In this document: piece after piece, positions 63 to 5,732 of the stretch
Layout: each line of letters starts with the position of its first letter
How positions within the stretch are numbered: the first letter of the stretch is position 1
Source: a virus
Lineage: Duplodnaviria > Heunggongvirae > Uroviricota > Caudoviricetes
Direction: 5' to 3' (one strand)
IMG/VR virus record: IMGVR_UViG_2541047968_000001
Span: 1-5,732 of that record
DNA: 5,732 bases
Notes under the pieces: model-generated
Seen by the model: only the letters and a program-made list of their open reading frames with translations
What the model was told of the DNA's origin: nothing
Database searches by the model: none
Position numbers and translations under genes: made by a program

Positions 63-482
63 GTGGCCTGTGGAGCGCTGTGGATGGCAACAGACCATTA
101 CCGTGATAACGCGATTACCTACAAAGCGCAGCGCGATAAAAAAGCCAGAGAGCTGGAGCTGGCAAACGCCACCATTACTGATATGCAGGTGCGCCAGCGC
201 GATGTTGCTGCGCTCGATGCAAAATACTCGAGGGAATTAGCCGATGCGAGAGCTGAAAATGAAACTCTTCGCGCTGACGTTGCCGCTGGTCGTAAGCGCC
301 TGCAAGTCGCCGCCACCTGTGCAAAGTCAACGACCGGAGCCAGCAGCATGGGCGATGGAGAAAGCCCAAGACTTACAGCAGATGCTGAACTCAATTATTA
401 CCGTCTCCGAAGTGGAATCGACAAGATAACCGCGCAGGTTAACTACCTGCAGGAGTACATCAGGACGCAATGCCTGAAATAA
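63..482 (+). CDS. Rz: Rz-like i-spanin (inner-membrane spanin component), 5'-truncated: native start codon and first few codons replaced by the junction at 34/35
   Basis: Translation ...[44 protein letters not shown]... closely resembles lambda Rz as I recall it. The frame is open upstream to a TGA at 12-14 and encodes the membrane-anchor-like stretch [16 protein letters not shown], but has no ATG or GTG before GTG 63. Stop TAA at 480-482. Confidence 0.7.
244..429 (+). CDS. Rz1: Rz1-like o-spanin (outer-membrane lipoprotein), embedded in the +1 frame of Rz
   Basis: Lies wholly inside Rz in a different frame, the classic Rz/Rz1 arrangement. Has a signal-peptide-like N-terminus with lipobox VSAC and a proline-rich mature region ([13 protein letters not shown]). 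Start may be ATG 244 or ATG 259, which is preceded by a GAGAG Shine-Dalgarno-like motif. Confidence 0.65.
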
Positions 483-683: not shown

Positions 684-1205
684 ATGAATATCGTGCCACT
701 TAATTACAAAGGTGAAATTGTCAGTTTCAACACTGATGGTTGGATCAACGTCACAGGTGTTGCTGAGAGATTTGGAAAACGCATTGATAACTGGATGCGT
801 TTGGCAGAAACGCTTGAATACGTTCGTGCTTTAGACGAAGCGTTGACCGGGAAAGAATCTCAAATTTTACATCCCTCACAATCGAGGTATGTAAAAACCA
901 GCAAGGCACGAAAGGACAGGGGTGGTGGTACGTGGCTACATCCAAAACTTTCAGTTGCATTTGCCCGTTGGTGTGATGCTCGTTTTGCTGTGTGGTGCGA
1001 CCTGCACATTGATAGTCTGCTTCGCGGTGAACTGACTGAGCAGCAGAAATATGAGCAAGCATGTCGCATTCGCGATGACCGGAAATCAAAAGCCAGCAAT
1101 GGGGCAAGAGAGATGGCTCGCTGGCGATGGGATAAGCCGGTTATTGAAGCAAATGTTGAGTACTGGCGCGAGCAACTGCAGTTGACTCTCGATATCGCGT
1201 GCTGA
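684..1205 (+). CDS. KilA-N domain-containing protein (173 aa), likely accessory (moron) gene
   Basis: Intact ORF, ATG 684 with upstream AGGT, stop TGA 1203-1205. Motifs GWINVTGVAERFGKRIDNWMRLAETLEYVRAL and GGTWLHPKLSVAFARWCDARFAVW fit the KilA-N (APSES-like) DNA-binding fold as I recall it. G+C is visibly lower than in neighbouring genes (by-eye sample about 37% versus about 55% in the terminase gene). Confidence 0.65.
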   Translation: MNIVPLNYKGEIVSFNTDGWINVTGVAERFGKRIDNWMRLAETLEYVRALDEALTGKESQILHPSQSRYVKTSKARKDRGGGTWLHPKLSVAFARWCDARFAVWCDLHIDSLLRGELTEQQKYEQACRIRDDRKSKASNGAREMARWRWDKPVIEANVEYWREQLQLTLDIAC

Positions 1206-1815
1206 TGGCAAACGCAAAACTGCGTTATCTGAAAAATCAAAGCATTACGAGAACTGAGCAACGGCTATCCATTACAAAGCCCATCTACGGGTGGGCTTGA
1301 TAATGAAACCGGAATTTATTCTTGGCAACCAGTTACGGCAGTACCACGAAACAACCCAAGCCAGTAAGTGGGGAAATAACACTGGCAGCCACTGAAAGAT
1401 GAAGCTCCTGCCTTAAGGCAAAAAAGATTCTTTGTGGTGGCGGACTGATGGAAAGACATCGGTTATTGCAGAGGCCATTCAATGAGTGGTCTCGACAATG
1501 GCTTATACCCTACACGGGATAACTTAACTGATATCCCTTTTAAAGGATAAAGGTATTCAAGCCTGACACATCATGCGCTGTATCGTCGCCGTATTCCTGC
1601 ATTAACAGAGACCGCAGCCCGACGGGGAACTCCTCTGCGCGAGTGTGCGGAAATAATCAAAAACGATACACACCGGGGTTTACCGCGTTAACGGAGCGTG
1701 GCGTTGTCCCCTCATGGTCGCTCGTCCGGTGCGATGGTGGAAGAAACTGGATTTTGTTGCAACTGATAATCATTATCATTTTCTCGGGTCCTTTCCGGCG
1801 ATCCGGGCCGTTACG

Positions 1816-1827
1816 GGGCGGCGACCT
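1816..1827 (+). other. cosN: cosN 12-nt cohesive-end sequence GGGCGGCGACCT (staggered nick site of terminase)
   Basis: Exact match to the 12-nt lambda cohesive end, preceded by GTTACG as at the lambda right end. Confidence 0.8.
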
Positions 1828-1864
1828 CGCGGATTTTCACTATTTATGAAAATTTTCCGGGATT

Positions 1865-1875
1865 CATGTCCGGTT
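1865..1875 (-). promoter_or_regulatory. Candidate cosB R-element, inverted copy (CATGTCCGGTT on +, i.e. AACCGGACATG on -)
   Basis: Reverse complement of the 11-mer that occurs twice downstream. Its position between cosN and the small-subunit gene mirrors lambda R3. Confidence 0.4.
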
Positions 1876-1922
1876 TCTCTGCAAGTTAACCATATGAAAA
1901 ATATAAAAACATGCTTTCCATG

Positions 1923-1933
1923 AACCGGACATG
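1923..1933 (+). promoter_or_regulatory. Candidate cosB R-element AACCGGACATG
   Basis: Exact 11-bp repeat, separated from the inverted copy by an A/T-rich spacer (GAAAAATATAAAAAC) and from the next copy by 30 bp. Confidence 0.4.
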
Positions 1934-1952
1934 CGCAAAAAATAGACACTAA

Positions 1953-1963
1953 AACCGGACATG
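1953..1963 (+). promoter_or_regulatory. Candidate cosB R-element AACCGGACATG
   Basis: Exact repeat of 1923-1933, about 48 bp upstream of the small-subunit start, followed by the related ACCGGTTTT. Confidence 0.4.
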
Positions 1964-2010
1964 ACCGGTTTTGTTGTGATTGTGAGGTGAGAGTTTTTGC
2001 GAGGTGAGGA

Positions 2011-2520
2011 GTGGCTACGCAGACTGAAGTTGCCAGGCATTTAAGTCTGACCGATCGCCAGCTTCGCAGATTGCAGAAATTGCCGGGTGCCCCGATATCG
2101 AATAAGCGAGGGCAACTGGATCTGGATGCCTGGCGCGATTTTTACATATCGTATCTGAGAAGAAGTAAAAACGATGTGCCTGATGGCGATAGCGAAGACG
2201 ACTATGAGGAGAAATTGCTTATTGCCAGATGGGAACTGACAGCAGAACAGGCTGTTACACAGCAGTTAAAAAATGAGGTGTCAAAAGGAAAACTTATTGA
2301 CACCGGGTTCTGTATTTTTGCCCTCAGCAAGCTGGCAATGGCGTTATCCAGTACGCTTGATTCCATCCCTTTATCCATGCAGCGACAGTTTCCTGATTTA
2401 ACACCGCGCCATCTTGACCATCTGAAAACCCTTATTGCGAAGGGGGCAAATCAGTGTGCGCGGGCGGGGGATAAATTACCGGATTTACTCGATGAATATA
2501 TCAGAGCAACAACTGAATAA
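2011..2520 (+). CDS. nu1: Terminase small subunit (Nu1 homolog) with a divergent N-terminal DNA-binding domain
   Basis: The C-terminal half (GFCIFALSKLAMALSSTLDSIPLSMQRQFPDLTPRHLDHL...LPDLLDEYI) aligns with the lambda Nu1 C-terminus as I recall it; the N-terminal ~60 aa (MATQTEVARHLSLTDRQLRRL...) is helix-turn-helix-like but not lambda-like. GTG start at 2011 after GAGGTGAGGA; an in-frame TGA at 2005-2007 excludes a longer ORF. Stop TAA 2518-2520. Confidence 0.8.
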   Translation: MATQTEVARHLSLTDRQLRRLQKLPGAPISNKRGQLDLDAWRDFYISYLRRSKNDVPDGDSEDDYEEKLLIARWELTAEQAVTQQLKNEVSKGKLIDTGFCIFALSKLAMALSSTLDSIPLSMQRQFPDLTPRHLDHLKTLIAKGANQCARAGDKLPDLLDEYIRATTE

Positions 2521-4420
2521 TATGATGAGTGCTGTCACAACAGCATTACAGCCCCTGATAAGGGCATTGCCGGTGACGCCAGTTGAATGGGCTGATCAAA
2601 ATTATTATCTGCCTAAAGAATCTTCATATGGTGAGGGAGAATGGAAAACGCTGCCGTTCCAGATCGCCATCATGAACAGCATGGGGAATGATCAGATCCG
2701 GACTGTTAATCTGATTAAATCTGCCCGTGTTGGCTATACAAAGATGTTGCTGGGAGTCGCCGGGTATTTTATTGAGCATAAATCCCGAAACAGTCTGCTT
2801 TTTCAGCCCACGGATTCTGCCGCTGAAGATTTTATGAAGTCTCACGTGGAGGCGACGATTCGCGATGTTCCCTGCCTGAAAAAACTTTCTCCCTGGCTGG
2901 GACGTAAACATCGTGATAATACCATCACGCTGAAACGCTTTTCATCGGGTGTGGGCTTCTGGTGCCTGGGCGGCGCTGCCGCCAAAAACTACCGTGAAAA
3001 ATCCGTGGACGTGGTCTGCTATGACGAACTTTCCTCGTTCGAGCCGGATGTCGAAAAAGAGGGCTCGCCAACCCTGCTGGGGGATAAGCGTATTGAGGGC
3101 TCGGTATGGCCAAAATCCATTCGCGGCTCGACGCCTAAAATAAAAGGCTCCTGCCAGATCGAAAAAGCGGCCAACGAGTCGGCGCATTTCATGCGTTTTT
3201 ATGTGCCCTGCCCGCACTGTGGGGAGGCGCAGTATCTGAAATTTGGCGATGAGTCCACGCCTTTTGGCCTTAAATGGGAGAAGGACAGCCCCGAAAGCGT
3301 TTTCTACCTCTGTGAACATCATGGCTGCGTGATCTATCAGTCTGAGCTTGACCAGAGCAACGGGCGGTGGATCTGTGAAAACACGGGCATGTGGACCCGT
3401 GACGGCCTGACGTTTTTCAGCGCTGCGGGTAATGAAATTCCGCCGCCGCGCTCCATCACATTCCATATCTGGACGGCGTACAGTCCGTTCACCACCTGGG
3501 TACAGATTGTCTATGACTGGCTGGATGCACTGAAAGATCCCAACGGCCTGAAAACCTTTGTGAACACCACGCTGGGCGAGACCTGGGAAGAGGCCGTGGG
3601 CGAAAAACTCGATCACCAGGTGCTGATGGATAAGGTTGTGCGTTACACGGCTGCGGTGCCTTCCCGGGTGGTTTATCTGACGGCGGGCATTGACTCGCAG
3701 CGAAACCGTTTTGAGATGTATGTCTGGGGATGGGCTCCGGGAGAGGAAGCCTTTCTGGTGGATAAAATCATCATTATGGGGCGTCCCGATGAGGAAGAGA
3801 CGCTGTTACGTGTGGATGTGGCGATCAACAAAAAATACCGCCATGCAGACGGAACCGAAATGACCATTTCCCGTGTCTGCTGGGACACCGGAGGGATCGA
3901 TGGCGAAATTGTCTATCAGAGGTCAAAAAAACACGGTGTTTTCCGGGTGCTGCCGGTAAAAGGTGCATCTGTTTATGGCAAGCCGGTGATCACCATGCCA
4001 AAAACCCGCAATCAGCGGGGCGTGTATCTGTGCGAAGTGGGGACGGACACCGCAAAAGAAATTCTCTATGCCCGTATGAAAGCCGATCCCACGCCTGCGG
4101 ATGAAGCCACGTCGTATGCCATCCGTTTTCCTGATGATCCGGAGATTTTTTCGCAGACAGAGGCGCAGCAACTGGTCGCGGAAGAGCTTGTGGAGAAGTG
4201 GGAAAAAGGAAAGATGCGTCTGCTGTGGGATAACAAAAAGCGGCGTAACGAAGCGCTGGACTGCCTGGTGTATGCCTACGCGGCATTACGTGTGTCCGTG
4301 CAACGCTGGCAGCTTGATCTGGCTGTACTGGCAAAATCCCGGGAAGAAGAGACGACCCGGCCAACCCTTAAAGAACTGGCAGCGAAGCTGTCCGGAGGAG
4401 TGAATGGTTACAGTCGCTGA
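2492..4420 (+). CDS. A: Terminase large subunit (lambda gpA-like; ATPase/endonuclease)
   Basis: 642-aa product colinear with lambda gpA over its whole length as recalled: MNIS start, Walker A-like KSARVGYTK, CPHCGE, WTAYSPFTTWVQIV, FVNTTLGETWE, KKRRNEALDC. ATG 2492 matches the lambda MNIS start and overlaps the small-subunit gene by 29 bp; the track's 2435 start is a TTG extension. Confidence 0.93.
   Translation: MNISEQQLNNMMSAVTTALQPLIRALPVTPVEWADQNYYLPKESSYGEGEWKTLPFQIAIMNSMGNDQIRTVNLIKSARVGYTKMLLGVAGYFIEHKSRNSLLFQPTDSAAEDFMKSHVEATIRDVPCLKKLSPWLGRKHRDNTITLKRFSSGVGFWCLGGAAAKNYREKSVDVVCYDELSSFEPDVEKEGSPTLLGDKRIEGSVWPKSIRGSTPKIKGSCQIEKAANESAHFMRFYVPCPHCGEAQYLKFGDESTPFGLKWEKDSPESVFYLCEHHGCVIYQSELDQSNGRWICENTGMWTRDGLTFFSAAGNEIPPPRSITFHIWTAYSPFTTWVQIVYDWLDALKDPNGLKTFVNTTLGETWEEAVGEKLDHQVLMDKVVRYTAAVPSRVVYLTAGIDSQRNRFEMYVWGWAPGEEAFLVDKIIIMGRPDEEETLLRVDVAINKKYRHADGTEMTISRVCWDTGGIDGEIVYQRSKKHGVFRVLPVKGASVYGKPVITMPKTRNQRGVYLCEVGTDTAKEILYARMKADPTPADEATSYAIRFPDDPEIFSQTEAQQLVAEELVEKWEKGKMRLLWDNKKRRNEALDCLVYAYAALRVSVQRWQLDLAVLAKSREEETTRPTLKELAAKLSGGVNGYSR
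2803..2897 (+). repeat. Native copy of the 95-bp terminase segment that recurs at 5638-5732 (and in part at 1-34)
   Basis: Exact 95/95 identity with 5638-5732 by direct comparison. Encodes terminase residues about 104-135 ([32 protein letters not shown]). Confidence 0.9.
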
Positions 4421-4610
4421 ACTGCAGGCGCTGCGTCAGGCGCGCCTTGATTTATTAACCGGTAAACGGGTGGTGTCTGTCCAGAAAGATGGTCGCAGAA
4501 TTGAATATACGGCGGCCTCTCTGGATGAGCTTAACCGGGCGATCAATGATGCTGAGTTGGTACTGGGGACAACCCGCCGTCGCCGTCGTCCGCTGGGAGT
4601 GAGGTTATGA
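4404..4610 (+). CDS. W: gpW-like head-tail joining / head completion protein (68 aa)
   Basis: Same length as lambda gpW and a conserved core (LTGKRVVSVQKDGRRIEYTAASL..., C-terminal RRRRRP). GGAGG precedes ATG 4404. Overlaps the terminase stop by 17 bp and the portal start by ATGA. Confidence 0.88.
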   Translation: MVTVAELQALRQARLDLLTGKRVVSVQKDGRRIEYTAASLDELNRAINDAELVLGTTRRRRRPLGVRL

Positions 4611-5732
4611 AACGAAAGCCTGTCCTGATTGATGTGAACGGCGTTCCGCTTCGGGAGAGCCTCAGCTACAACGGGGGCGGTGCAGGATTTGGCGGGCAAA
4701 TGGCAGAGTGGTTGCCACCCTCGCAGAGTGCCGATGCGGCCCTGCTGCCCGCGTTGCGTCTGGGGAATGCCCGTGCAGATGATCTGGTGCGCAATAACGG
4801 AATAGCGGCCAATGCGGTGGCCCTGCATAAGGATCACATTGTCGGGCATATGTTTCTGATTAGCTACCGTCCGAACTGGCGCTGGCTGGGGATGCGGGAG
4901 ACCGCGGCAAAAAGTTTTGTCGATGAGGTGGAGGCGGCCTGGTCAGAATACGCAGAAGGGATGTTTGGTGAGATCGACGTGGAAGGGAAACGCACGTTTA
5001 CGGAATTTATCCGTGAAGGTGTGGGCGTTCATGCGTTTAACGGCGAAATCTTTGTGCAGCCGGTCTGGGATACGGAGAGCACGCAACTGTTTCGTACGCG
5101 TTTTAAAGCCGTGAGTCCGAAACGGGTGGACACGCCAGGACACGGTATCGGGAACCGTTTTCTGCGGGCCGGGGTGGAGGTTGATCGATATGGCCGTGCC
5201 GTTGCGTACCATATCTGTGAGGATGATTTTCCTCGCTCCGGGAGTGGACGATGGGAACGGATCCCGCGTGAACTTCCCACCGGGCGTCCGGCCATGCTGC
5301 ATATTTTCGAGCCGGTGGAGGACGGGCAGACCCGTGGGGCCAACCAGTTTTACAGCGTCATGGAACGGCTGAAGATGCTCGATTCCCTGCAGGCAACACA
5401 GCTTCAGTCGGCCATTGTTAAAGCCATGTATGCAGCGACGATTGAAAGTGAACTTGATACCGAAAAGGCCTTTGAATATATCGCCGGTGCGCCACAGGAG
5501 CAGAAGGATAATCCGCTTATTAATATTCTGGAGAAGTTTTCCAGCTGGTATGACACGAATAACGTGACACTGGGCGGTGTCAAAATTCCGCACCTTTTCC
5601 CCGGTGATGATCTGAAACTTCAGACCGCGCAGGATTCTCAGCCCACGGATTCTGCCGCTGAAGATTTTATGAAGTCTCACGTGGAGGCGACGATTCGCGA
5701 TGTTCCCTGCCTGAAAAAACTTTCTCCCTGGC
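4607..5732 (+). CDS. B: Portal protein (lambda gpB-like); native sequence runs only to 5637, after which the frame continues in frame into the repeated terminase segment to the window end
   Basis: Matches to lambda gpB as recalled: GFGGQ, LLP..GNARADDLVRNNG, KRTFT..IREGV..HAFNGE.FVQ, FEPVEDGQTRGAN.FYSVME..KMLD.LQ.TQLQSAIVKAMYAATIESELDT, LQTAQD. ATG 4607 follows GGGAGTGAGG. From codon 344 on, the translation is terminase sequence ([13 protein letters not shown]...). Confidence 0.85.
   Translation, partial: MKRKPVLIDVNGVPLRESLSYNGGGAGFGGQMAEWLPPSQSADAALLPALRLGNARADDLVRNNGIAANAVALHKDHIVGHMFLISYRPNWRWLGMRETAAKSFVDEVEAAWSEYAEGMFGEIDVEGKRTFTEFIREGVGVHAFNGEIFVQPVWDTESTQLFRTRFKAVSPKRVDTPGHGIGNRFLRAGVEVDRYGRAVAYHICEDDFPRSGSGRWERIPRELPTGRPAMLHIFEPVEDGQTRGANQFYSVMERLKMLDSLQATQLQSAIVKAMYAATIESELDTEKAFEYIAGAPQEQKDNPLINILEKFSSWYDTNNVTLGGVKIPHLFPGDDLKLQTAQDSQPTDSAAEDFMKSHVEATIRDVPCLKKLSPW
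5638..5732 (+). repeat. Second full copy of the 95-bp terminase segment, joined to portal sequence at 5637/5638; reaches the window edge so may extend further
   Basis: Exact identity with 2803-2897. The preceding base differs (c at 5637, t at 2802), which places the junction there. Confidence 0.9.

Follow-up and report, generated by a model that had tools for sequence, protein, structure and literature searches.

A lambda-like cos site with an uncharacterised cosB repeat and its putative cognate terminase small subunit

The 5,732 nt stretch of viral DNA analysed here (the window) combines the cohesive-end sequence of lambda with a neighbouring set of AACCGGACATG repeats, and it raises the question of which terminase would recognise such a site and whether the small subunit (TerS) encoded just downstream is its partner. 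Lambda-like packaging specificity is documented for three systems only, lambda, 21 and N15, with phage 21 as the precedent: its specificity lies in cosB together with terS's 5' end, and lambda/21 hybrids are viable (PMC4669245). We consider it likely that a lambda-type cosQ and cosN, a cosB of lambda/21 layout with AACCGGACATG R elements and a cognate TerS form one cassette here. Read from the sequence, the cosB/TerS specificity cassette is genuine; systems of this kind are ordinary, and the putative recognition sequence is very common. What is new is the uncharacterised putative recognition repeat; the type of cos/TerS system is already known. A literature search on the motif strings returned no relevant paper, and an Rfam scan of the whole window at the gathering threshold returned nothing.

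Layout of the cos site

The sequence places the cos site of this lambda-like E. coli prophage at 1786-2010 (Table 1). The cosQ element is identical to lambda 48473-48479, lies at an equal distance from the nick (-30 to -24) and is unchanged across 11 diverged relatives. The cohesive-end sequence matches lambda and phage 21 at 12 of 12 positions, and bp 13-49, counted from the cohesive end, match lambda at 32 of 37. The initial annotation described both cosN and the sequence to its left as nearly lambda-identical; this holds for cosN but is overstated for the left side, where the 52 bp beside the nick contain 8 differences from lambda, one of them an indel (identity about 85%), with resemblance falling off farther leftward. 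The I2-like segment has the position of the I2 IHF site annotated in the phage 21 record (M81255). It carries two mismatches to the IHF consensus, and its TTATGAAAATTT is invariant in the relatives.

Table 1. Features of the cos region and terminase genes, in window coordinates.
Feature	Position	Strand	Remarks
cosQ	1786..1792	+	GGGTCCT; putative packaging-termination element
cosN	1816..1827	.	12-nt cohesive-end sequence GGGCGGCGACCT; flanked by predicted nick sites; left-end bp 1 = 1816
I2-like segment TATGAAAATTTTC	1845..1857	+	Within conserved bp 13-49
Exchangeable specificity cassette (cosB and DBD/linker-coding terS), putative	1857..2200	+	From DNA similarity breaks and discordant protein halves
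R3-equivalent, predicted TerS element	1865..1875	-	bp 50-60; + strand CATGTCCGGTT, - strand AACCGGACATG
I1-equivalent IHF-like site	1887..1899	-	bp 72-84; + strand TAACCATATGAAA, matches YAANNNNTTGATW
R2-equivalent AACCGGACATG	1923..1933	+	bp 108-118; inverted relative to R3
R1-equivalent	1953..1970	.	Exact copy 1953-1963 (+) overlapping one-mismatch copy 1960-1970 (-); in near-palindrome 1951-1972
terS, small terminase subunit, 169 aa	2011..2520	+	GTG start after GAGGTGAGGA
terS 5' part, N-terminal winged-HTH DNA-binding domain (DBD), aa 1-54	2011..2172	+	Predicted domain
terL, large terminase subunit	2492..4420	+	Overlaps terS end; PhiR12_1 annotation mapped onto window

To the right of these elements cosB (1865-1970) reads, from its sequence, in the order R3, IHF-like site, R2, R1, with AACCGGACATG R elements where lambda, 21 and N15 have sequences of their own. 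The three exact copies first reported, one inverted and two direct, proved correct in coordinates and orientation. A fourth copy had been overlooked; AACCGGTCATG, with one mismatch, overlaps the third, and the two make up a 22-bp near-palindrome, AAAACCGGACATGACCGGTTTT, which also scores as a terminator-like hairpin. No further copy with up to two mismatches was found in the whole window. From the cohesive end the copies lie at bp 50-60, 108-118, 138-148 and 145-155, and the phage 21 record places R3 at 50-65, I1 at 72-86, R2 at 107-122 and R1 at 150-165 (M81255). These positions correspond to the slots that R3, R2 and R1 take up in lambda and 21, R3 itself occupying bp 50-65 in both phages, as had been proposed from the R3-I1-R2-R1 arrangement of lambda. 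At R1 the exact copy is oriented like R2, unlike R1 of lambda and 21; only the overlapping one-mismatch copy, oriented like R3, reproduces their orientation pattern. The description of the repeats as non-lambda stands in that the R3 slot agrees with lambda at 2 of 16 bases, but a GACATG core is common to these repeats and the R boxes of phage 21.

The spacer between the inverted and the first direct copy is A/T-rich as described (1876-1922, about 70% A+T). For the IHF site sought in it there is a candidate with two mismatches to the consensus WATCAANNNNTTR, falling in the I1 slot of phage 21; by itself such a match is no better than chance, as the whole window holds 44 matches against 46 expected. 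The homologous position in the 11 relatives has zero to two mismatches and is perfect in four of them, and we suggest that IHF may bind here.

Modelled on lambda, IHF would bend the A/T-rich spacer and so allow a dimer of the TerS DBD to bridge the inverted R3 and R2. TerS would bind the repeats, and its Nu1-type C-terminal half would position the large subunit (TerL) over cosN. TerL would then introduce staggered nicks at cosN and package rightward, and termination at the next cos would involve cosQ and cosN.

The small subunit and a probable exchangeable cassette

The protein encoded by terS matches PHROG 57 'terminase small subunit' over its full length and the Pfam family Phage_Nu1 (PF07471) at 67.9 bits, above the curated threshold of 30, the latter over residues 49-150 of 169 only. 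The homologue in phage PhiR12_1 is annotated as Nu1. Downstream of terS follow terL, a W-like gene and a portal gene, and in homologous loci terL has both GpA_ATPase and GpA_nuclease domains.

Against the small subunits of lambda, 21, N15 and phi80 the match begins at about residue 60-73, with 40-47% identity. It was claimed that the C-terminal half is lambda-like and the N-terminal helix-turn-helix (HTH) region different. The former is right as to the Nu1 family, but identity to lambda is 41%, and the domain swap is demonstrable with the small subunits of other enterobacterial prophages. One of these (P0056) shares 13% identity with the present TerS over the N-terminal domain and 85% over the C-terminal half; the latter half is common, at identities of up to 85%, to small subunits bearing other heads and other repeats. 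As to the N-terminal domain, it differs in sequence from the DBD of lambda TerS (about 16% identity; about 18% to phage 21), but it is predicted to have the same MerR-type winged HTH fold as lambda TerS and the Rpp DBDs, with DRQLRRLQ (aa 15-22) as predicted recognition helix.

The remote searches with this domain gave little. In Foldseek every E-value of the domain-only model was above 0.1; that model was needed as long helices dominated the full-length search, which gave E > 1 only. Searched by profile against the PDB, both the full protein and the N-terminal domain by itself drew insignificant matches only, with no link to lambda Nu1. Hhalign of the N-terminal profile against lambda Nu1 1-70 aligned the expected helices at a probability of 6%, which we do not count as homology, and tblastn and profile searches found no similarity to phage 21 in the first ~60 residues. 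The multi-HTH proteins from the representative search were discarded as irrelevant generic HTH repeats.

When the locus is aligned with loci carrying other DBD classes, DNA similarity ends at about 1856 and returns at 2200-2224. To the left of the divergent segment lies the conserved cosN/I2 region, and to its right the conserved 3' terS. CosB and the DBD-coding 5' third of terS thus appear to behave as one exchangeable specificity cassette. Small subunits with a different head (LNKSxMAxSxGISVQAFDKW) and a similar C-terminal half always come with GGTTGTTGT repeats in the same slots, and those with a lambda-type helix come with lambda-like AGATCCGTTCTTC repeats. The repeat sequence changes with the TerS head while the C-terminal half stays the same, which agrees with the modular design put forward at the outset, where the N-terminal domain would set the specificity for cosB.

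Conservation in relatives and alternative readings

A scan of genome contigs turned up 12 loci, of which few belonged to the right class, and a first scan of viral contigs gave near-identical copies only; diversity was gained by look-ups of single diverged proteins and by scans with diverged queries. The resulting set of 11 diverged loci, from E. coli, Klebsiella, Salmonella, Citrobacter, Enterobacter and metagenomic assemblies, has TerS sequences 60-99% identical to the present one. When aligned, cosQ, part of cosN, TTATGAAAATTT, TCCGGTT, the TAA..TTGA IHF core and AACCGGA are invariant and the DNA between these islands varies. All 11 keep a spacing of 58 bp between R3 and R2. Among 54 unique sequences of close relatives all 11 positions of R3 are invariant, and the spacers are the most variable part. 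The R1-equivalent is kept in most close relatives and in the Klebsiella and Enterobacter loci, and is absent in several others.

Across the MATQ-type family, TCCGGTT occupies the R3 slot for 32 of the 37 unique N-terminal domains. TTCCGGTT stands in this slot for nearly every MATQ-type TerS examined, Pseudomonas-like and alphaproteobacterial ones among them; in the viral contigs of the latter two kinds the R3 core is the only such element ahead of terS. The cultured phages phiARM81ld and LPPA33 have the core in the R3 slot too, and the phiARM81ld record begins at the cohesive end, with CATTTCCGGTT at bp 52-62; a literature search for cos data on this phage gave nothing useful. The comparison of the 11-mer among phages with the same N-terminal domain, proposed as a check, hence shows the 11-mer, and chiefly its AACCGGA/TCCGGTT core, kept in position and orientation; the outcome named beforehand as refuting did not arise.

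Base 8 of the repeat follows residue 20 of TerS, which lies in the predicted recognition helix, being C with Arg and A otherwise. All 8 unique domains with Arg have GGACATG-type sites, and all 24 with Asn, Asp, Thr, Ser, Lys or Glu have GGAA-type sites. R3 and R2 of one locus are always the same variant (ACAT, AAAT or AAGT). Simple co-inheritance of linked characters could be the cause of this correlation; a neighbour-joining tree of 52 residues, which is poorly resolved, places the Arg types in two clades.

Could the locus be a sub-variant of the phage 21 specificity, with terminases that may cross-recognise each other's cosB? GACATG is common to AACCGGACATG and the 21 sites R2 (AAGGTCCGACATGAAA) and inverted R1 (AAGGCCCGACATGAAA), R2 lies within 1-2 bp of its distance from cosN in phage 21, and R20 of the present TerS aligns with R21 of 21 gp1, an Arg at the aligned helix position. 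Still, the invariant core AACCGGA is absent from phage 21, where CCG is one base out of register; the R3 slots agree at 4 of 16 bases, the R3 and R1 registers are 3-8 bp off, and the N-terminal domains are 18% identical, with the first ~60 residues lacking detectable similarity. We regard this reading as unlikely. It is also improbable, to a slightly greater degree, that some or all repeats serve something other than terminase, either as operators of a phage or host regulator or, for the palindrome at 1950-1973, as an intrinsic terminator insulating the head genes from prophage read-through. Either strand of the palindrome passes as terminator-like, with 9 or 8 pairs, a loop of 6 nt and a tail rich in T, and several relatives do without the third copy. 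However, R3 and R2 sit in the exact terminase-site slots with 58-bp spacing, and they vary in sequence with the class of TerS head and not with any neighbouring gene. Further, the right arm of the palindrome decays in relatives (GGCGGTT, GCCGATT) without compensatory changes, which fits a decaying protein site and not an RNA stem; a terminator role of the third site would also be compatible with binding of terminase.

A third reading, that of functionless repeats duplicated by chance or left as relics, seems hardly credible. Its sole support is the shortness of the motif, against which stand the clustering, as an 11-mer repeated at least three times within 120 bp occurred in 1 of 2000 dinucleotide-preserving shuffles, and the core, which keeps a fixed distance from cosN and does not vary across genera or even across proteobacterial classes. 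Of the 7-mer AACCGGA itself the window has 4 occurrences where 0.81 would be expected, and three of the 4 fall in the repeat region. We therefore retain the reading of the repeats as R elements of a cosB with its cognate TerS.

A bolder extension, which we offer tentatively and hold to be possible but not quite probable, is that the MATQ head and TTCCGGTT-core repeats make up a fourth specificity of the lambda family, exclusive of lambda, 21 and N15, with the GGTTGTTGT class as a fifth; residue 20 and bp 53 of R3, with its counterpart in R2, would set sub-specificities, and the cassettes would split the prophage pools of EHEC into packaging-compatibility groups. If this is true, such groups would decide which helper mobilises which defective prophages and satellites.

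Significance and comparison with known packaging systems

Of 5426 complete E. coli genomes, 1146 (21%) carry the cassette, O157:H7, O145 and O103 strains among them, with up to 4 copies each, and it is annotated as 'terminase small subunit' only. The plaque-forming phages PhiR12_1 to PhiR12_5 carry the region at 99.2% identity. Once the recognition element is known, it can be predicted which co-resident or defective prophages and satellites each terminase can package. The loci also offer a natural series of helix and site variants for how the TerS winged HTH reads DNA, and an orthogonal cos/terminase pair for cosmid-style use or phage engineering. The general picture of DNA packaging in cos phages is unchanged.

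With lambda the locus has in common the identical cosN, the identical and equally spaced cosQ, the conserved bp 13-49, an R3 slot at bp 50-60, an IHF-like site between inverted R3 and R2, a terS directly downstream that overlaps terL, the Nu1-family C-terminal half and a predicted MerR-type winged-HTH DBD. It differs in the R3 sequence, in both halves of TerS, in the helix (IRTIQNWQ in lambda, DRQLRRLQ here) and in the orientation of the exact R1 copy, which is opposite. Phage 21 is alike in architecture, slot positions and the GACATG core of its R boxes, and differs in lacking AACCGGA and in its DBD; 21 gp1 resembles lambda Nu1 over its full length, whereas similarity between the present TerS and 21 gp1 begins only at about residue 64.

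N15 and Monarch have a simple and a complex cosB within one specificity, and the MATQ class likewise has both forms: the complex one (R3-I1-R2, with or without R1) in enterobacterial prophages and the simple one (R3 only) in Pseudomonas-like contigs, LPPA33 and the Aeromonas phage phiARM81ld. A like division is seen in the GGTTGTTGT class. The R sequence and recognition helix appear to differ from those of N15 and Monarch. The locus seems to fall outside the documented lambda, 21 and N15 groups, N15 being judged by TerS alone, with a match over residues 59-164 only, and its functional specificity would be expected to differ from all three.

Finally, the Rpp proteins of the PICIs (RppC, PDB 6hn7/6hlk) were considered as an identity for this protein; no sequence similarity to Rpp was detected by profile search. 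An Rpp is a short protein that lacks the C-terminus for TerL binding, and it is encoded on a satellite devoid of terL and head genes. The present protein of 169 aa has the C-terminal half of Nu1 type in full, and downstream of it lie its own terL, W-like and portal genes; it is therefore a phage TerS and not a PICI hijacker that borrows the TerS of a helper.

Genomic setting and the cos region

The window spans the late-gene junction in a lambdoid E. coli prophage. A stretch of about 600 bp between the KilA-N-domain ORF and terS has no long ORF. The plaque-forming phage PhiR12_1 is collinear with positions 1574-5600 at 98.9% identity, and its collinear genes are annotated as Nu1, A, W and B. 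The segment 321-1573 (about 1.25 kb, from Rz to the cos region), which holds the KilA-N-domain ORF, is absent from the otherwise collinear PhiR12_1. It resembles a moron-like insert 5' of cos; at this place O157:H7 relatives have the gene of a PerC-family regulator together with a YlcI/YnfO gene. The window ends 1-34 and 5635-5732 duplicate internal terL segments (2813-2846 and 2800-2897, respectively). These copies abut the 5'-truncated Rz gene and the portal gene, both junctions are missing in PhiR12_1, and the duplications look like an assembly or chimera artefact, not biology.

Features of the window, with bp counted from the cohesive end (bp 1 = 1816)
Feature	Position	Strand	bp	Remark
Rz gene, 5'-truncated	63-482			
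KilA-N-domain ORF	684-1205			Pfam 8e-22
cosQ, GGGTCCT	1786-1792			nick distance as in lambda
cosN, GGGCGGCGACCT	1816-1827			same sequence in lambda and 21
AACCGGACATG, exact copy	1865-1875	-	50-60	
AACCGGACATG, exact copy	1923-1933	+	108-118	
AACCGGACATG, exact copy	1953-1963	+	138-148	
AACCGGTCATG, fourth copy, one mismatch	1960-1970	-	145-155	
terS	2011-2520			
terL	2492-4420			
W-like gene	4404-4610			
Portal gene, start only				3' of the W-like gene

The initial annotation described cosN and the sequence to its left as nearly lambda-identical, which holds for cosN itself, whereas identity to lambda is only about 85% over the 52 bp to the left of the nick and wanes farther left. To the right, bp 13-49 match lambda at 32/37 positions. 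The three exact 11-mers, one inverted and two direct, were found again at the same coordinates and on the same strands. The third and fourth copies overlap to form the near-palindrome AAAACCGGACATGACCGGTTTT, and no further copies with up to 2 mismatches were found elsewhere in the window; any 11-mer occurred three times within 120 bp in 1 of 2000 dinucleotide shuffles. A fourth exact AACCGGA core lies at 1307-1313, about 500 bp left of cosN, within 24 nt that match 1854-1877 weakly in inverted orientation (71% complementarity), and is probably due to chance as 0.8 cores are expected per window.

Conservation of the repeats and co-variation with the TerS helix

A protein-collection search revealed TerS homologues in three N-terminal classes on one type of C-terminal half: class A (MATQxEVAxHL..[TS]xR..R.L), to which the window TerS belongs, class B (LNKSxMAxSxGISVQAFDKW) and class C, with a lambda/21-type helix. 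We compared the DNA of diverged class-A loci (TerS 60-88% identical) from E. coli, Klebsiella, Salmonella, Citrobacter, Enterobacter and metagenomic assemblies, along with one class-B and one class-C locus. With cosN as anchor, the R3 slot of every class-A locus holds CAT[G/T]TCCGGTT or a near variant and the R2 slot holds AACCGGA[C/A][A/G]T, in agreement with the earlier expectation that the 11-mer would be conserved along with this N-terminal domain. Across the 11-locus alignment, cosQ, part of cosN, TTATGAAAATTT, TCCGGTT, TAA..TTGA and AACCGGA form invariant islands, the remainder being free to vary, and the R3-R2 spacing is 58 bp in 11/11 loci. A search for an IHF site in this spacer had also been proposed; the candidate at 1887-1899 has 2 mismatches in the window, a match by itself not above chance, but the intervening site shows 0-2 mismatches to the IHF consensus across the 11 loci, four being perfect. 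Among 54 unique close-relative sequences R3 is constant at 11/11 positions and the spacers vary most.

Base 8 of the repeat follows residue 20 of TerS. Arg at this residue goes with C (8 unique domains, helix ..RQLRRLQK) and Asn, Asp, Thr, Ser, Lys or Glu with A (24 unique domains); R3 is free of exceptions, and R2 has a lone singleton variant. Physical linkage means that helix and site are co-inherited, so the correlation is phylogenetically non-independent. The neighbour-joining tree placing the Arg types in two clades was built on 52 residues. A Trp17/Asp20 helix pairs with GGAAGTG. Each locus has the same variant in R3 and R2, 58 bp apart, which is hard to explain unless a single reader constrains both. 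Lambda residues 20 and 24 set the discrimination between lambda and 21, and window residue 20 aligns with lambda residue 21, adjoining these two on the face of the recognition helix that points to the DNA.

In the phage 21 record M81255, R3 is annotated at bp 50-65, I1 at 72-86, R2 at 107-122 and R1 at 150-165. Lambda R3 likewise spans bp 50-65; TerS contacts it at bp 55-63, and positions 56, 58 and 59 are critical (PMC9026076). The invariant portion of the window R3, TCCGGTT, is bp 54-60, within this contact zone. R3 and R2 of the window are mutually inverted, as in lambda and 21, while the exact third copy is oriented as R2 and the overlapping degenerate copy as R3.

Chance is excluded as the origin of the repeats, as their conservation argues against it. 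The R1 palindrome fits a terminator-like pattern, but its right arm degenerates in relatives without compensating changes; it may have a secondary insulating role. Partial cross-recognition with phage 21 may also occur, given that GACATG is common to the phage 21 R boxes (..CCGACATGAAA; locus L004, M81255, 216-331) and the window repeat (1865-1970); against this, the invariant core AACCGGA is absent from 21 and the registers differ. In phage 21 gp1, the helix residue that aligns with the co-varying Arg20 of the window is also Arg; the shared GACATG and aligned Arg may reflect coincidence, shared descent or an Arg-G contact common to both.

TerS mosaicism and other head classes

The Pfam Phage_Nu1 match is confined to residues 49-150 of the window TerS, and PHROG 57 ("terminase small subunit") spans all of it. 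The initial annotation described a different N-terminal helix-turn-helix region. An AlphaFold model covering residues 1-58 (pLDDT 82; helices 4-10, 15-22 and 38-54, bridging strands) predicts that the head shares its fold with the lambda DBD, the two being about 16% identical, and is not another kind of domain. The domain swap itself is real: the TerS P0056 is 13% identical to that of the window in residues 1-55 and 85% in 66-169. The corresponding values are 62% and 94% for P0010, 73% and 61% for P0034, and 16% and 41% for lambda. DNA likeness to class-B and class-C loci ends at about 1856 and returns at 2200-2224, and from these breakpoints and the protein identities the exchangeable unit is cosB plus roughly the first 65 terS codons, the unit that experiments have transferred among lambda, 21 and N15 (PMC4669245). 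The MATQ-type head is also seen on C-terminal halves not of the window Nu1 type (P0106, P0110 and P0101, the last 19% identical to window residues 66-169), and seems to be exchanged between several small-terminase backbones.

Class-B loci, with C-terminal halves 66-85% identical to the window TerS, always carry GGTTGTTGT in the R3 slot; in enteric ones the R2 slot holds an inverted copy and the R1 slot a direct one, and Pseudomonas-like contigs have it in the R3 slot only. Examples are L109 (1300-1500), L253, L259, L261 and L265, and the regions upstream of terS in L114, L124 and L143. Class B is a second uncharacterised TerS head class with its own repeat. Class-C loci, with a lambda-like helix, carry AGATCCGTTCTTC-type repeats similar to the lambda R sequence. 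The method thus retrieves the expected element for a known helix type, and the repeat differs from one head class to the next.

Breadth of class A, proposed mechanism and known systems

Viral-contig scans with diverged queries and one genome-contig scan gave 37 unique class-A N-terminal domains, 32 of which have the TCCGGTT core immediately upstream of terS. The non-enteric site is usually CCGCTTCCGGTTCCGG, or GGTTCCGGTTCCGGTT in alphaproteobacterial contigs, and is the sole element before the start codon. Two cultured phages belong here: the record of Aeromonas phage phiARM81ld starts at a lambda-like cohesive end, GGGCGTTAGACC, with CATTTCCGGTT at bp 52-62, and Pseudomonas phage LPPA33 has CCGTTTCCGGTTCCGGTT immediately 5' of terS. 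The R3 core of such simple cosB sites is repeated as overlapping 6-bp units, TTCCGGTTCCGG, up to 3 units (L145-L153, L235-L252, L277 from LPPA33, L278 from phiARM81ld, L014-L015 and L116), a pattern which suggests tandem half-sites and not a single 11-bp site.

A profile of the N-terminal domain matched 514 representative clusters (E <= 0.001), and nearly all of the best-scoring matches are proteins 150-210 residues long that carry the domain N-terminally. Coverage of region 1600-2600 reaches at least 80% in 1122 of the 5426 complete E. coli genomes. The class-A cassette occurs in 21% of complete E. coli genomes, O157:H7, O145 and O103 strains among them, with up to 4 copies per genome. In E. 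coli O157:H7 strain F7508 (L279, 3136-5063) cassette and terS are intact and the adjacent terL is annotated as frameshifted; this cos site could be usable only by terminase supplied in trans from the genome's second copy. In Shigella flexneri and E. coli chromosomes (L005 and L006, about 1300-1500) an upstream insertion-sequence transposase gene truncates terS at about codon 68, so that cosB and the DNA-binding head are lost and the C-terminal half and terL remain.

We infer binding, bending and nicking from lambda, on which the mechanism is modelled (PMC9026076). A TerS DBD dimer would read R3 and R2 over an IHF-induced bend at 1887-1899, and the Nu1-type C-terminal half would hold TerL at cosN for staggered nicks at 1815/1816 and 1827/1828. 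R1 may contribute affinity or order, and in termination cosQ and cosN would work at the downstream cos.

Textbook accounts already cover the architecture of cos, the layout of R and IHF sites and the modularity of TerS specificity. Our literature search found no description of the AACCGGACATG repeat or the class-A head. The class-A cassette is well supported, not surprising, and useful to the packaging field; few packaging specificities have been studied, the documented ones being those of lambda, 21 and N15 (PMC4669245). The simple cosB within class A parallels the N15-vs-Monarch dichotomy of Feiss and colleagues (PMC4669245).
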